Below, in pieces: positions 8,349 to 50,639 of a DNA stretch of 64,000 bases. The translations under genes were made by a program, and so were the position numbers. The DNA comes from an uncultured Alphaproteobacteria bacterium (GTDB taxonomy: Bacteria; Pseudomonadota; Alphaproteobacteria; RF32; CAG-239): positions 9,252-73,251 of the forward strand of contig CALXPU010000005.1 in assembly GCA_944390455.1 (NCBI GenBank). Reading direction: 5' to 3'. Positions within the stretch are counted from its first letter, which is position 1. Each line of letters opens with the position of its first letter. The notes under the pieces were generated by a model that saw only the letters and a program-made list of their open reading frames with translations, was not told the origin of the DNA and made no database searches.

Positions 8349-9329
8349 TTAGGTTATTTCTGTTATACCACGAATGTTTCCGTCTCTAACGATTTGTACC
8401 ACATGAAGTTTGCGGCGCATTTCTTCTATTGTTTTTTCTACATCAATATTAGGTTGAGTTCTCATGATACGTTTTACAAAAGCTTCGTAAGCAGCCGTTG
8501 AACTTTCTGCGTGGATTGTTGCTAAGCAGTTGTCGTGTCCGGATCCCATCAACTCCCAGATTGCTCCGGCATTACTCGTTGAAATTTCTCCGCCGATAAT
8601 TGCATCTGGTGTGAAACGCACAATTAAGTCAATTACCTTTGAGTAGTCCATTGTATTGGTTTGCTCTGTACGTGACAGAACAATATGTACTCTATTGGGC
8701 TGTGGTACATTTAATTCTCGAGTATCCTCTACGGTAATAACTCGCTTATGTATATCTAACAGCTTTAACAGGTTATTCAATAGCGTTGTTTTACCGGTAC
8801 CGGTACCGCCGCTTACCAATATATGGTCACCACGTCGCAAAGCCAATAATAAACGTTCATAAGCATCGTCTGGGTCTTTAATGTTCTTTAAAGGGTTTAT
8901 TTCTTTTAATTTTTTTCCTTGCTCTAGTCCATAGTCTCCAAAACCAAATGCGACATCATCGGTATGTAGACGGATTGTTATTGCAATTCCACCAGTTGCT
9001 GCATCATCCAGATCATATTCAATATTTTTTCCAGCGACCCCAGTGAAACGGTGTCCTCCAGGAATTCTCGCATAGACCACAGGAGATCCATTTATCGGAT
9101 CAAATTCTTGGTCATTTAAATTTGCAATAATATGAAGCAAATTTGTCAGATATTCTCTGGTTAATTTAGGATCTTTGTAATTAACCCATGGAAAAGCTCT
9201 TTTTCCACGCAAGCGTAGCCATATATCTCCCGGATGATTTATGGCGACTTCTTCTATATTTTCTTGTTCATACCAGTATGATAAAGGTCTTAATACCGAG
9301 CATAGAACTTCATCCTCTAGTTTTCCCAT
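8349..9329 (-). CDS. virB11: T4SS ATPase VirB11
   Basis: 326 aa. Walker A LVSGGTGTGKTTLLNNLL, Walker B-like HKRVITVEDTREL, and a His box (GSGHDNCLATIHAESS). It is convergent with engB, with only 3 nt between the two stop codons. Confidence 0.85.
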   Translation of the reverse strand: MGKLEDEVLCSVLRPLSYWYEQENIEEVAINHPGDIWLRLRGKRAFPWVNYKDPKLTREYLTNLLHIIANLNDQEFDPINGSPVVYARIPGGHRFTGVAGKNIEYDLDDAATGGIAITIRLHTDDVAFGFGDYGLEQGKKLKEINPLKNIKDPDDAYERLLLALRRGDHILVSGGTGTGKTTLLNNLLKLLDIHKRVITVEDTRELNVPQPNRVHIVLSRTEQTNTMDYSKVIDLIVRFTPDAIIGGEISTSNAGAIWELMGSGHDNCLATIHAESSTAAYEAFVKRIMRTQPNIDVEKTIEEMRRKLHVVQIVRDGNIRGITEIT

Positions 9330-9397
9330 TTATACACTCCCTTTTTGCCTCATTTATTGTAGCAAATATTCTATACTTCGTCAACACGATACATGCA

Positions 9398-12300
9398 TTA
9401 GAATAGTTCAATATCTCCAGAAATTTCTTCTTCGCTCTCCGGAGCTTCTGTTACTGAACCATCTGCAGCCGGCGGAGGAATTGCTCCTACATTTTTGCGT
9501 GGTTGCTGTTGGTTATTTTGGCTATTACCACTATCTAACAAAGGAGTGCCACCATTGTTACTCGTATTGTTTGCATTATTTGTTTGAGCTTGGTTGCCTA
9601 AGATAACCTTCTGACTGCCTTGAGAATTGTTCTTTTCTACTGTAGAGGTTGTGGTTCCACCACCGCCACCATAGAATGTCTCATTTACCAATCCTCCTTC
9701 GCCACCTCCCGGTACGGCTGTAGCTACACCGCGTTGAATATCTTTTGTGCTTCTCAACCATAAATCTTGCATCGGATAAATTATTACTCTTGTACCCGCT
9801 GGAATATACGTTACTGGCTGTATTTGAGATTTACTATCAATAATCTCTTGTAAAATTTGATCCATTTTTTCCATAAATTCTTGTCTTGCATCTGATGCGG
9901 CTTGTTGTTTTGAAGTTTCCACTTCTCCGGTACTATCTTCGTCAGCGGCCATCATATATGTAATTGCTGAAGTTACCATAGTACCAACAATCGGCAATGT
10001 GTATTTCTTCACTAACTGTTCATCAACATAACCCAATGCACCACCACCACGTCCTTGTGCATCGCCAGTTTGAGTTCTTCCCGGTGAAAGTAAAAATGCT
10101 ATACCATCTGGGCGGATAATTCTCTCCCAAGATATGTCTAACTTTACACCACCACTTGTATTATCAAATCTTGCCTCTGTATCTGTTGTTTGCAGACCGC
10201 CAATTATTCTACTACCAGCTGGAATAATTACGTTACGTCCAGAATCACCATAAATATTTCGTTCAACTATCGCTGTTACCGGAGCGGAACCTAAGGATAT
10301 TAATGAACGCGCCAGAACTGCCGGTATTGGTTTATCTCCCGTAATCATATTATCCATATTCACTCTTAATGTTGACACCGTACGTTTCATGCCCCAGTCA
10401 TCTTGCCAACCGGTATATGAAGCTGCATCATATCCTGGTTCTATTTTGGCGGCAACGAGTGTTCTTCTTCGTTCATCTTGAAGTTGTGATAATATTGCAG
10501 CTCGTCTTGGATTATACCTTCCACCAGGGCCAACACCTCCGCCAGGACCGACATTGGTTATTTCATCACCACTGCTATATGGATTTATGGTTGCTCCTGT
10601 TGCTATCTGTTTCCACCAATTTGCATTCATCCCTTTGCTATCTGCTGAGGCACGTTGTTTTTCAAAATCACCAACTTTATTTCCTTCATTATCGAATATT
10701 TCTCCTTTTTCGTTGGCGCTACCAACAACAGCACCTGATTCATCTATTACTTTATTATTACTGTATACATCTCCAATATAACGTCCTCCTGGGGTTACAG
10801 CTATTCCCACAACTTGATAATCTTCTTTAGTTTCAAGAGCGGCTTGCTCTTCCGGACTTAATGTTTCTTCTATCTGTTCTTCTGTTTTGGAAGCAACATT
10901 TTCAATTTCAGTATTTATACTATTTTCTTCTTGATTTTCGTCTTCAATCTCAGTTTCAGATGTTTTTACTTCTGATGCCTCAGGCGTTTTTTCAACAATC
11001 TTTTCCTCTTTGGGTTCCGATGGACGGCGATAGTATTGTAATTTTCCAGCTTGCCCCAATACATCTCCTGAAGGAGAAATTACTCTACCTTCTTCATCTA
11101 TTTTTCCTATTTCTATGTTTTTTATATTTACAACACTACCATCTAGGTTCAAGTGCCCTATTATTTGATTATCTTTGTTCCTTATTTCATAATCTCTTAG
11201 ACCGCGCCCTATTAGATTTTGTTTCTTATCTAAAACAAATCCTTGATAAATAGATCCTTTTATTTCTCCCATTATGCTATATACTCGACCATTCTTGGCG
11301 ATATATCCTATGGTTTTTCCTTCATTATCATATACATATAAATCATACAAAGCATAACCATTGTCGCCTTTTTTAGTTTTCACTTCTCCGGTATGGAGTA
11401 CATAACCTAAATTTTCACCATTATCTGAGACAACACTGCCATCTGGTTTTACGCGCCCTAAATAAATATTATTCGCATCAAAGGCTACCGTGTATTGGAA
11501 AGGTACACCTATGTTCTTTCCATCCTTAGAGCGGATACTGCCGTCTAAATCTATAGTAGCAATTTGTATGCCGGAGGTATCTACAACATTTCCATAAAAA
11601 TTTGTATATCCCAGTATTTTATTATCAAATCCCATTACAGACATATACGGAATTATTTGCCCGATAATTTCTTTTTGAGCATTTCTTACTTTTCCATTGC
11701 TATCTATACACCCTAAATTTTGATTATTATAATTAAGGACATTACCTGATGAATTGCTTACGCCAATTGTATCTCCCCCTTCTCCATTTACTGCACGGGG
11801 TTGTACAACATAACCTATTACTTCTTCTGTTTCATTTACGACCTGCTTATTTGCTAATATCATACCCAAATAAGCATCTTTAGATGTTCTGGCTTCACCA
11901 CTATCTGATACAATACCTATGACTTTGCAATCTGGTGAAATAACAGTCCCCATCTCTAAGGCTTTTCCATATAAAGCTCCCATGTTATCCAGAACATATC
12001 CATTTGAACTTATTTTTCCAATTATTTCCGTTCCCTTGGTTACTTGTCCCGTCAGGCTATTTGCCCCCAGATAATCGCCATTAATACTTACACTGATTGG
12101 AGCATTGCTTGCACGTCCATAATTTTGCGAAAAACGTTCTGATATTCCAACTACATTATTATCCGGTAAGATTTTTGCAAAAACTTTATTTTGTGAATTT
12201 ACCACCAAATTTCCAGAATTAACAACACCTTGCATTTCTCCTTCAAAATTTGTAATAAATTTACTTTCCACCATTTTTCCGAGTAACTTATTATTTTTAT

Positions 12301-49677: not shown

Positions 49678-49691
49678 TTTGTTTTATTTTC

Positions 49692-50639
49692 TTAGAATAT
49701 CGGCAAAGATTGTGCCATTCTTGCGGCTTGCATTTCAATAGATGTAGCTAAATTTAACTTACCACTACGAATAATTGAGCGAACAGAGCAACCTTTATTC
49801 AAGTCAGGATTAGCAAAAAGTGTTTCTATTCTAGGCTTTCTGTGTGTTTCTGTGCCAACCAAATCTTGTTTAATAACAGATAGGATACCGCGGGATAAAA
49901 TATCATATGCGGAACTTTCACTCATACTGAAACTTGCATATTTAACCAAAGAACTTAACGCATCCGTAATGGAGCTTGCGTGAATCGTTGTGAGCACCAA
50001 GTGCCCTGATATTGAAGCTCTTAGGCATTCACACGCCGCATCAGGTGTTCTTATCTCTCCGATAAAAATATAGCGTGGTTTAGAGCGTAATGCTGATTTA
50101 AGAGGATCACGCCAGTTGTCATTTTGAACTTCTGTTTGTTTACAGAAACCTATTGAGCCATTAAATGATTGATATTCTCCTTCCAATGGCATTTCGGCAG
50201 GATCTTCAATTGTATAGGCAAAACCGCCTTCCAGATTTAAGTATTCTGCAAGAAGGCTTGATATTGATGTTGTTTTACCTGAACCTGTTGCTCCCCCCCA
50301 TATTATTAAACCACTTTGTGCAGATAGAGATAGCATATATTGAACAAATCTGTGATCAAATCCTAAATTATGAATGCTCGGAATAGTGAGAGGCATTCTT
50401 CTCAAACAATATAACTCTCCATTTACACTTAGGACGTTTTCAACACGGAAAAATGTTCCTTTATAGTTCATTGAATAGGAACTTGTTTGATGCATAATTA
50501 AAAAGAGTTGCTCGCAAAATTCCTCTTTATCACTTGGCACTACCCTTTTTAAACTATTAGCATATTTTTCATCTGATATATAAAAATCTTTATTTGAATT
50601 TATATATAAATCCGAAAAACTGTATTGCAAAAGTTCCAT
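49692..50639 (-). CDS. PilT/PilU/DotB-family hexameric ATPase
   Basis: 315 aa. Walker A WGGATGSGKTTSI, Walker B-like RYIFIGEIRT, His box GHLVLTTIHASS. It is co-oriented with atpF and 14 nt downstream of it. Confidence 0.7.
   Translation of the reverse strand: MELLQYSFSDLYINSNKDFYISDEKYANSLKRVVPSDKEEFCEQLFLIMHQTSSYSMNYKGTFFRVENVLSVNGELYCLRRMPLTIPSIHNLGFDHRFVQYMLSLSAQSGLIIWGGATGSGKTTSISSLLAEYLNLEGGFAYTIEDPAEMPLEGEYQSFNGSIGFCKQTEVQNDNWRDPLKSALRSKPRYIFIGEIRTPDAACECLRASISGHLVLTTIHASSITDALSSLVKYASFSMSESSAYDILSRGILSVIKQDLVGTETHRKPRIETLFANPDLNKGCSVRSIIRSGKLNLATSIEMQAARMAQSLPIF

Follow-up and report, generated by a model that had tools for sequence, protein, structure and literature searches.

A chromosomal VirB-type type IV secretion locus in uncultured gut Alphaproteobacteria, without linked genes for VirB6, VirD4, VirB1 or a relaxase

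VirB6 has been described as conserved in all type IV secretion systems (T4SSs), in which it acts as a platform for pilus nucleation, and the Trw system of Bartonella has been proposed to make antigenically variable pili for host-specific adhesion, with translocation dispensed with (PMC12857230). In the Rickettsiales, the rvh system includes five VirB6 proteins, no VirB5, and duplicated VirB4, VirB8 and VirB9, together with VirD4 (PMC2653234). The locus described here lies on a 64-kb stretch of DNA from an uncultured alphaproteobacterium (contig CALXPU010000005.1), hereafter the window, and its place among the VirB/D4 (P-type, MPF-T) T4SSs is indicated by the presence of VirB4, a VirB7/VirB9/VirB10 core, VirB8, VirB3, VirB2 and VirB11. 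No VirB6, VirD4 coupling ATPase, VirB1-type lytic transglycosylase or relaxase is encoded at the locus. The interpretation we favour, with chances that we judge to be about even, is that it represents a chromosomally fixed, vertically inherited VirB-type T4SS, descended from a plasmid conjugation lineage, that most likely makes variable pili or surface fibres for attachment.

Several better-known systems provide points of comparison. Trw keeps and amplifies VirB6 (trwI) inside its locus. In the Cag system of Helicobacter, the VirB10 homologue is greatly enlarged and carries repeats, and there are further secreted or surface proteins specific to the locus, as well as a VirB6 (CagW), a VirD4 (Cag-beta) and a VirB1-type enzyme, whereas ComB of the same genus lacks VirB11 and VirB5 and has VirB6. 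The likeness of the present locus to Cag, in its enlarged VirB10 and its additional secreted proteins, is one of description. The genes of the locus, in their order on the minus strand, are listed below, with lengths in amino acids (aa).

38556-38933, minus strand: pilin VirB2a (Pfam TrbC 3e-10)
37967-38290, minus strand: pilin VirB2b (Pfam TrbC 5.9e-8)
37599-37955, minus strand: pilin VirB2c (Pfam TrbC 4.9e-4)
37230-37520, minus strand: VirB3, 96 aa (from size, two transmembrane (TM) segments and 32% identity to plasmid VirB3)
34793-37240, minus strand: VirB4 ATPase, 815 aa (Pfam CagE_TrbE_VirB 2.7e-10; VirB4_TrbE_N on record)
33550-34713, minus strand: 387-aa secreted protein, mature N-terminus AFWPVID
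31305-33488, minus strand: 727-aa secreted protein, mature N-terminus AFIWPVID
30607-31305, minus strand: 232-aa secreted protein, the top VirB5 candidate by size and full-length collinear alignment
29238-30614, minus strand: 458-aa secreted coiled-coil protein, mature N-terminus ALILDAP
23875-29256, minus strand: 1793-aa hydrophilic secreted protein at the usual VirB6 position, signal-like N-terminus only, grand average of hydropathy (GRAVY) -0.71
23096-23854, minus strand: VirB8a, a divergent second VirB8 (Pfam VirB8 8.7e-13)
22763-22951, minus strand: VirB7-like lipoprotein, 62 aa (lipobox LILAAC, motif GIG..LKLSPCACI)
21993-22751, minus strand: VirB8b (Pfam VirB8 1.6e-18)
20006-21973, minus strand: VirB9, 655 aa, with a C-terminal SPOR domain (Pfam CagX/VirB9 2e-14, SPOR 3.6e-4)
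13731-20009, minus strand: 2092-aa beta-flower protein with one N-terminal TM segment (Pfam Bflower_2 7e-142, 21 stretches)
9398-13759, minus strand: enlarged VirB10, 1453 aa (Pfam Bflower_2 7e-60, TrbI 7e-28)
8349-9329, minus strand: VirB11 ATPase, 326 aa (Pfam T2SSE E 2.3e-26)

An earlier reading of the sequence alone, the first-pass annotation, had called this locus otherwise complete, a description that is apt for VirB2, VirB3, VirB4 and VirB7 to VirB11 but not for VirB5, which is present only in the form of weakly supported VirB5-like paralogues. The 62-aa lipoprotein is assigned to VirB7 on the strength of its lipobox and of a motif (GIG..LK.SPCACI) that recurs in lipoproteins encoded ahead of virB8 in the Microvirga and Erythrobacter plasmids discussed below.

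The same annotation had described the open reading frames (ORFs) between virB4 and virB8 as soluble secreted proteins, and had found no polytopic VirB6-like protein, no VirD4, no relaxase and no lytic transglycosylase, all of which is upheld here. The five ORFs are predicted to be soluble and secreted, each being hydrophilic (GRAVY -0.52 to -0.71) with an N-terminal signal-like hydrophobic segment only, and their internal 19-residue Kyte-Doolittle windows do not exceed 1.1, save for a value of 1.41 in the first post-signal helix of the 727-aa protein; the label 'secreted' refers throughout to hydropathy together with AxA-type cleavage motifs. No TrbL/VirB6 match and no TM-rich ORF is found in the locus, P-loop matches that might suggest VirD4 are weak, sub-threshold and confined to VirB4 and VirB11, and no relaxase-family or SLT match occurs. 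The scan for TrbL/VirB6, type IV coupling protein (T4CP), relaxase and SLT families, which was without a match, took in the ORFs of the window other than DnaA, DnaN, RecF, YidD, shikimate kinase, RNase PH, ITPase and thioredoxin, these having been identified otherwise. Polytopic proteins are confined, over the whole 64 kb, to YidC, the platform protein of the pilus (PilR) and ATP synthase a, and the genes of the locus are so tightly packed as to leave no room for a pseudogene. Likewise, no T4SS gene is found in the flanking DNA (~9 kb to the left and ~3 kb to the right of the window).

A scan of species-representative genomes extends these observations to 58 related loci, with VirB4 proteins 64-98% identical to that of the window; the source of every one is an uncultured alphaproteobacterium of the human, ruminant, chicken or mouse gut. 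The names on these records include 'Proteobacteria bacterium CAG:495', 'Acetobacter sp. 46_36', 'Rickettsiales UMGS1453' and Candidatus Scatocola, and we take the relatives and the window to belong to the GTDB order RF32 (lineage RF32/CAG-495). In addition, exactly the same VirB4 protein is found in 66 metagenome-collection blocks, and 23 contigs of up to 137 kb among these matches were read. The related loci that were inspected begin with a type IVb pilus cluster in divergent orientation; next stand the virB2 genes (three as a rule), virB3 and virB4, succeeded by genes for three to six secreted proteins and one of 1200-1800 aa, and, where the 10-kb flank suffices, by virB8a, the 62-aa lipoprotein gene, virB8b and virB9. 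A coding-strand polytopic ORF between virB4 and virB8 is found in none of the 58 loci, and a large secreted protein occupies the virB5-virB7 position in every related locus that extends so far. Furthermore, phmmer searches with the VirB6, SLT, VirD4 (three) and MobA/MobL relaxase (three) proteins of the plasmid relatives returned nothing from the 8025 ORFs of the window and the related loci. Absence, as the term is used here, refers to the 64-kb window, its ~9-kb and ~3-kb flanks, and up to 10 kb around virB4 in the 58 related species.

Many polytopic minus-strand ORFs in the related loci were set aside as antisense artefacts of A-rich genes. In a species from water buffalo colon, virB2a and virB2b are separated by a 601-aa ORF (L032:6831-8636, minus strand) that has nine hydrophobic segments, matches no Pfam family, and may be either an inserted membrane protein or another such artefact.

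The origin of this arrangement is suggested by plasmids. When VirB4 was compared by tblastn with 72,556 plasmids, the closest proteins were those of Microvirga (36% identity), Sphingosinicella (34%) and Erythrobacter aureus (34%), followed by those of Paracaedimonas plasmids (30%). The three closest plasmid relatives are as follows.

NZ_CP069357.1: Microvirga sp. VF16 plasmid pMVF16-3
NZ_CP035502.1 (L067, L197-L203): Sphingosinicella sp. BN140058 plasmid p1
NZ_CP031358.1 (L068, L204): Erythrobacter aureus plasmid

In all three, an upstream MobA/MobL relaxase gene is followed by virB2, virB3, virB4, virB5, a gene for a 428-493-aa secreted protein, virB7 to virB11, and virD4, which stands directly after virB11 in each case. 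The order virB2-B3-B4-B5-(secreted protein)-B7-B8-B9-B10-B11 and the SPCACI motif are thus shared with the window, and sequence identity is appreciable for VirB11 (42%), VirB9 (34-39%) and VirB8b, the orthologue of the single plasmid VirB8 (30%, blastp E 4e-29). The plasmid relatives differ in having pilin, VirB5 and VirB8 as single copies and a VirB10 of normal size, in the possession of a relaxase and VirD4, and in their location on very large plasmids.

Of the three closest relatives, two (Sphingosinicella p1 and the Erythrobacter aureus plasmid) themselves have a virB cluster without VirB6; the only polytopic proteins of these clusters are VirB2 and VirB3, and VirD4 has just two N-terminal TM segments. 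The whole 347-kb Sphingosinicella plasmid was read and TM-scanned, and the sole VirB6 candidate is a 441-aa, 6-TM protein encoded at 88560-89885, ~17 kb from the virB cluster, with a gene for an SLT-domain protein (E 1.6e-6) close by. On the Erythrobacter plasmid, a homologue with 46% identity, which is annotated as a T4SS protein, is encoded ~19 kb away from the virB cluster. These TrbL-like proteins are 436-441 aa long, and a regular TrbL is carried by a Paracaedimonas plasmid. The MOB-suite ratings of the plasmid relatives are 'mobilizable' or 'non-mobilizable', which in the case of the Sphingosinicella and Erythrobacter plasmids we attribute to the unlinked position of VirB6.

On both plasmids, the TrbL-like gene belongs to a three-gene module (L198:37849-39885, L204:5180-7191) that also encodes, ahead of the TrbL-like protein, a 126-137-aa protein and a 95-102-aa hydrophobic protein, for which no Pfam family was found when the Sphingosinicella pair was scanned. 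The two plasmids, of 347-408 kb, are full of hypothetical genes, and encode DNA polymerase III alpha and beta, ligase, ribonucleotide reductase, RecA, ClpX, sigma factors and many DNA methyltransferases. A type IV pilus ATPase and platform-protein pair is likewise present on the Sphingosinicella plasmid; a shared origin with the pilus cluster of the window was considered but is not claimed, since only the ATPase matches, at 29%.

Since the virB clusters of two of the three closest relatives are also without VirB6, the absence of VirB6 and VirB1 from the window can be seen as an inherited family layout, and both proteins are probably encoded elsewhere in the genome. The absence of VirD4 and the relaxase, on the other hand, is taken to be derived, because all three plasmid relatives carry both genes in or beside the cluster; in the window, virB11 abuts engB, which lies convergently in the place of virD4, and the pilus cluster fills the relaxase side of the operon. 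The first-pass annotation had posed as alternatives that the missing genes are encoded elsewhere or that the machine is a VirD4-independent apparatus like Trw, and each seems apt for one part of the problem. The former fits VirB6 and VirB1, which are unlinked in two of the three plasmid relatives (SLT in one), and the latter, by analogy, would fit the loss of VirD4 and the relaxase, the three linked pilins and the fast-diverging secreted proteins. The absence of three genes is consequently less strange than it looks, two of the three being probably missing by family custom, and only the loss of the DNA-transfer part looks like a true functional change, because the plasmid relatives keep VirB6 and VirB1 elsewhere (VirB1 in the case of Sphingosinicella).

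The plasmid layouts could also be read as evidence for a complete translocator whose VirB6, VirB1 and VirD4 are scattered about the genome as in the Rickettsiales, and which injects effectors or DNA into other cells. Consistent with such a machine are the unlinked VirB6 of the relatives (and the SLT gene of one plasmid), the retention of VirB11, and the existence in related species of orphan virB2 genes, which shows that parts can be dispersed. However, virD4 directly follows virB11 in all three relatives whereas engB does so here, searches of the window, the flanks and the related loci revealed no VirD4, and neither VirD4 nor VirB6 lies behind the pilin-associated operator, described below, in at least 120 metagenomic occurrences. 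The comparison with the Rickettsiales, raised in the first-pass annotation, is apt only on the surface: rvh is likewise chromosomal, vertically inherited in an alphaproteobacterial lineage, duplicated for VirB8 and not all in one place (PMC2653234). In composition, only the VirB8 duplication is shared, and the two systems are otherwise the reverse of one another, with five VirB6 proteins and no VirB5 in rvh (PMC2653234) as against no VirB6 and several VirB5-like proteins at the present locus. A scattered translocator is therefore regarded as unlikely.

The five secreted proteins are evolving rapidly. Across species in which the median identity of VirB4 is 87%, that of the secreted proteins is 27-39% and that of the pilins 52-66%, as compared with 84% for the secretin and 88% for the ATPase of the adjacent pilus cluster; in a more distant clade, BLASTP no longer recognises most of the secreted proteins, of which there are between four and seven. 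The 387-aa and 727-aa proteins are clear paralogues (BLASTP E 2e-34), and the mature N-termini share a hydrophobic-x-Asp start (AFWPVID, AFIWPVID, AIFDIM, ALILDAP and PPMPWDIEVD) that resembles the IPVID or IPTID with which the VirB5 proteins of the related plasmids begin. A VirB5 profile was built from four plasmid VirB5 proteins, one of which matches Pfam PF07996 (VirB5) at 6.8e-7, and compared with the secreted families by hhalign, the scores being pairwise, without database correction, and partly spanning signal peptides. By this measure, the N-terminus of the 387-aa family matches VirB5 with Prob 95.5% (E 1.4e-8, 52 columns including the end of the signal peptide), that of the 727-aa family with Prob 82%, and that of the 458-aa family with Prob 47%. 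For the 232-aa family, the match covers 190 columns (Prob 61%, E 8e-5; 40% with a deeper profile), and residues ~121-266 of the 1793-aa protein match the C-terminal half of VirB5 with Prob 69%. These resemblances suggest, as a reasoned inference, that the secreted proteins are VirB5-like paralogues.

Other approaches to the secreted proteins were less informative. An exhaustive hidden Markov model search with the 232-aa family gathered 129 relatives, and a Pfam VirB5 domain is present in none of the 65 remote ones. Profile searches of PDB sequences with the 727-, 232- and 458-aa families, the plasmid VirB5 proteins and the deep 232-aa profile returned coiled-coil noise only, and a Foldseek search of the PDB with an AlphaFold2 model gave nothing below E 0.8. 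The 1793-aa protein, which is most conserved over residues 1-650, has no Pfam or NCBIfam family, and protein-database searches with it returned only 14 close fragments. Homology of the secreted proteins at the VirB6 position of the plasmid clusters with either the RF32 giant or the 458-aa protein was tried by hmmsearch and hhalign and rejected (Prob 1.7% for the giant), and because no similarity was found, only positional equivalence is claimed.

That position is nonetheless suggestive of a machine that does without VirB6 altogether. If VirB6 were nowhere encoded in RF32, the stalk and pilus platform might be provided by the conserved 1200-1800-aa protein (1793 aa here) together with the VirB5-like paralogues. 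The lack of any polytopic protein at the locus, or up to 10 kb from virB4 across 58 species, would be explained, as would the large secreted protein that always fills the virB5-virB7 slot, a slot held by the 428-493-aa protein in the plasmid relatives; a soluble replacement is conceivable in that the VirB6 of R388 is mostly periplasmic, with only two N-proximal helices in the membrane (PMC12857230). However, two of the three closest relatives carry a TrbL-like protein elsewhere on the plasmid, and the same would most simply be expected of RF32. VirB6 is, moreover, described as conserved in all T4SSs (PMC12857230), the secreted proteins of the plasmids do not align with the giant protein, and the AlphaFold2 model of the latter is unusable. 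Such a machine is thus distinctly unlikely, although, if real, it would be the first T4SS shown to work without a subunit that is regarded as universal.

The signal peptides lend themselves to yet another interpretation, a two-step exporter like Bordetella Ptl or Brucella VirB, of which some or all of the five Sec-exported proteins would be the substrates, leaving the periplasm by way of the outer-membrane core with no need of a coupling protein. Five proteins with signal peptides are indeed encoded inside the operon, and two-step secretion without VirD4 is known (PMC12857230). Against this, their N-termini resemble the structural protein VirB5, their number varies between species (4-7), and the multiplied pilins favour a fibre over a toxin exporter, leaving the two-step exporter very unlikely.

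The pilin genes are marked by a 23-bp operator-like motif, of which two exact copies are observed in the window against an expectation of 0, at the following positions (distances in nucleotides, nt).

38403-38425, minus strand: copy 1, 113 nt upstream of virB2b
39024-39046, minus strand: copy 2, 91 nt upstream of virB2a and 151 nt upstream of the divergent pilus operon

The core of the motif, TGTGAA-N-TTTTT-GTTACA, is an imperfect inverted repeat with CRP/FNR-like half-sites, and in both clades most related loci retain it ahead of virB2. When metagenomes were scanned with the core, at least 120 occurrences were found, of which about half have a VirB2-like gene starting no more than ~185 nt downstream (usually 91-133 nt), and the remainder look like chance matches. 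VirB6 and VirD4 genes carrying this motif, a possibility raised in the first-pass annotation, were not found: neither gene stands behind the motif in any of these occurrences, and the motif marks pilin genes only. The copy at 39024, lying in a shared intergenic region, may control both virB2 and the type IVb pilus operon.

Among the motif-linked pilins are orphans encoded away from the locus, as well as fusions that carry extensions of ~500 residues. Orphan operators followed by virB2 are found in relatives at L069 (trx, motif, virB2), at L169 (near ATP synthase b/b'), and at L126, L156 and L187. In the distant clade, a third VirB2-like pilin bears C-terminal extensions that bring it to 245-1459 aa and match no Pfam family (for instance, L056:6620-9538, L047:5190-9569, L038:6972-9551 and L036:6720-9524), and a 655-aa pilin fusion (L140:6095-8062 and L162:5451-7418) also stands alone behind the operator in another genomic context. 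A pilin with a large fused domain is unusual for VirB2. On a contig of 1968 nt (L179), a 352-aa ORF with nine hydrophobic segments, whose start is that of VirB2a, resembles a fusion of three VirB2 units, but could equally be an assembly artefact.

The locus may also be compared with Trw. A plasmid conjugation origin, the lack of a coupling protein and multiple variable pilin copies are common to both (PMC12857230), the first two being judged for the window at the level of the locus. Trw also has multiple variable VirB5-type genes (PMC12857230), to which the 4-7 secreted genes with VirB5-like N-termini, at marginal profile scores, may correspond. The differences are nevertheless considerable: Trw co-amplifies VirB5, VirB6 and VirB7 (trwJ-I-H), whereas the locus in the window has no co-amplified VirB6 and a single VirB7, and Trw, which is of the R388 lineage, is without beta-flower arrays, a second VirB8 or a linked type IVb pilus.

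Taken together, these comparisons are consistent with a course of events in which the ancestor would have been a plasmid conjugation system, with a virB operon that lacked VirB6 and encoded a second secreted protein between virB5 and virB7. In RF32, the substrate-recruiting module (VirD4 and relaxase) would have been shed, and the envelope-spanning complex and pilus parts (VirB2, VirB3, VirB4, VirB7 to VirB11 and the VirB5-like proteins) would have been kept. VirB6, perhaps together with an SLT enzyme, would come from an unlinked gene. The exposed parts would have been multiplied and diversified, to give three pilins behind the operator and four or five Sec-exported proteins. The product would be variable pili or fibres for attachment, deployed alongside the type IVb pilus, with co-regulation through the shared intergenic operator being probable. 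Judged against the plasmid clusters, the derived changes in RF32 also include the duplication of VirB8, the gain of ~800 beta-flower residues by VirB10, the insertion of the 2092-aa protein, the gain of SPOR by VirB9, the expansion of a single VirB5 and a single secreted protein to five genes, and that of a single pilin to three. Gene content, ancestry, the unlinked VirB6 of the relatives and the rates of divergence are demonstrated; the place of VirB6 in RF32, the lack of VirD4 across the genome and the function are inferred, the last of these by analogy with Bartonella Trw. DNA transfer is less likely than attachment.

A number of observations count against this attachment machine and its proposed history. 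VirB6, VirB1, VirD4 and the relaxase may all lie elsewhere in RF32 genomes, and a VirD4 elsewhere in the genome, if present, weakens an adhesion-only function; the retention of VirB11 fits a translocator as well as it fits a pilus-building machine. With respect to the unlinked VirB6, the Pfam TrbL match of the Sphingosinicella candidate (E 4.2e-5, 23.8 bits) falls just under the cut-off of 25.9, an SLT gene accompanies the VirB6 module only in Sphingosinicella, none being found in the 6-kb flanks of the Erythrobacter module, and Microvirga has an in-cluster 228-aa, 3-TM protein, so that the unlinked layout is not universal in the lineage. With respect to VirB5, the secreted proteins have no direct Pfam VirB5 match and their profile scores are marginal (Prob 40-95%), and the AlphaFold2 models are unusable, the mean predicted local distance difference test score (pLDDT) being 54 for the 232-aa protein (30 sequences) and 38 for residues 1-650 of the 1793-aa protein (14 sequences).

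The type IVb pilus genes that adjoin the pilins, divergent from virB2 here as in the related loci inspected, comprise the following.

39197-49677, plus strand: type IVb (R64 thin-pilus-like) cluster (Pfam TcpQ 7e-17, Secretin 7e-17, PAP_PilO 4e-14, T2SSE 3e-62, T2SSF 8e-27, Bundlin 2e-4)
49692-50639, minus strand: PilT/PilU-family ATPase, 315 aa, not a T4CP (Pfam T2SSE 1.7e-29; NCBIfam pilT_fam 2.6e-30, below the model cut-off)

The cluster encodes a 463-aa protein, a TcpQ-domain lipoprotein, a secretin, PilO, a 515-aa protein, the assembly ATPase, a T2SSF platform protein and a bundlin-like pilin, and the PilT/PilU-family ATPase gene lies convergently at its end. The pilin ORF as listed (48922-49677) overlaps the platform-protein gene, and its true start is probably further downstream. 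As in the thin pilus of IncI1 plasmid R64 (PilL-PilV), a TcpQ lipoprotein, secretin, PilO, ATPase, platform protein and pilin adjoin a conjugation-type machine; unlike R64, the cluster has no PilV shufflon, no PilT-type transglycosylase and no prepilin peptidase, with a PilT/PilU-family ATPase instead, and neither a prepilin peptidase nor a PilV-type adhesin family was found among the ORFs of 39197-50639.

The adjacency of a type IVb pilus and a PilT-like ATPase, together with the lack of a T4CP or relaxase at the locus, might be thought to indicate a DNA-uptake machine like Helicobacter ComB, working with the pilus. In ComB, however, ComB4 is the only ATPase (PMC12857230), whereas VirB11 is present here, and the window holds neither a ComEC nor a ComH gene. 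Such a role is accordingly considered highly improbable.

Towards the other end of the operon lie the genes for two repeat-rich proteins. VirB10 consists of an N-terminal TM segment, beta-flower repeats over residues ~97-905 and a TrbI barrel at 1139-1335, and the 2092-aa protein, whose gene stands between virB9 and virB10, is made up almost entirely of repeats. The DNA repeats in the region of the latter gene have periods that are multiples of 51 nt, for instance 156 nt. VirB10 and its 2092-aa neighbour thus consist mostly of beta-flower repeats (Pfam PF21785/PF21784) across positions 9398-20009, where the GC skew falls to -0.42. The beta-flower arrays are presumably located in the periplasm, and the SPOR domain of VirB9 is the sole peptidoglycan-related domain found in the scanned ORFs.

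The setting of the locus is chromosomal, with a G+C content of ~36% over the 64 kb. The T4SS locus sits between the dnaA-dnaN-recF..yidC-engB genes and those of ATP synthase F0; positions 101-8345 hold dnaA (partial), dnaN, recF, gpsA, rnpA, yidD, yidC and engB, and positions 50654-63963 hold the ATP synthase F0 genes b', b and a, a gene for a DsbA-like protein, dciA, xerD, addB, addA and the thioredoxin gene. To the left of the window, the ~9 kb of flanking DNA carry recG, mfd, fpg, S20 and dnaA, and the ~3 kb to the right carry a hypothetical protein gene and a two-component system. The dnaA-dnaN-recF cluster is only ~6 kb from the T4SS locus, with rpmH-rnpA-yidD-yidC-engB immediately before it, and in the window's own species the thioredoxin gene is followed by a gene for a 206-aa hypothetical protein and not by a pilin gene. 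A highly conserved chromosomal site near dnaA is unusual for a plasmid-derived machine.

The literature that could be searched yielded nothing relevant on RF32 with T4SSs or secretion systems, or on VirB6-less systems, and the locus is an undescribed, clade-wide, Trw-like variant of the VirB-type T4SS in an uncultured gut lineage. For the family at large, it points to an alphaproteobacterial T4SS lineage that keeps VirB6 apart from the virB operon, with SLT beside VirB6 in one member, and as a result of this separation annotation pipelines score such T4SSs as incomplete. For the organisms themselves, a widespread uncultured group of the gut of humans and ruminants has fixed such a machine near dnaA-dnaN with its transfer module removed. 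By analogy, the Trw-like pattern would point to attachment to a host or partner under diversifying selection, and may provide a lead to the lifestyle of the lineage.

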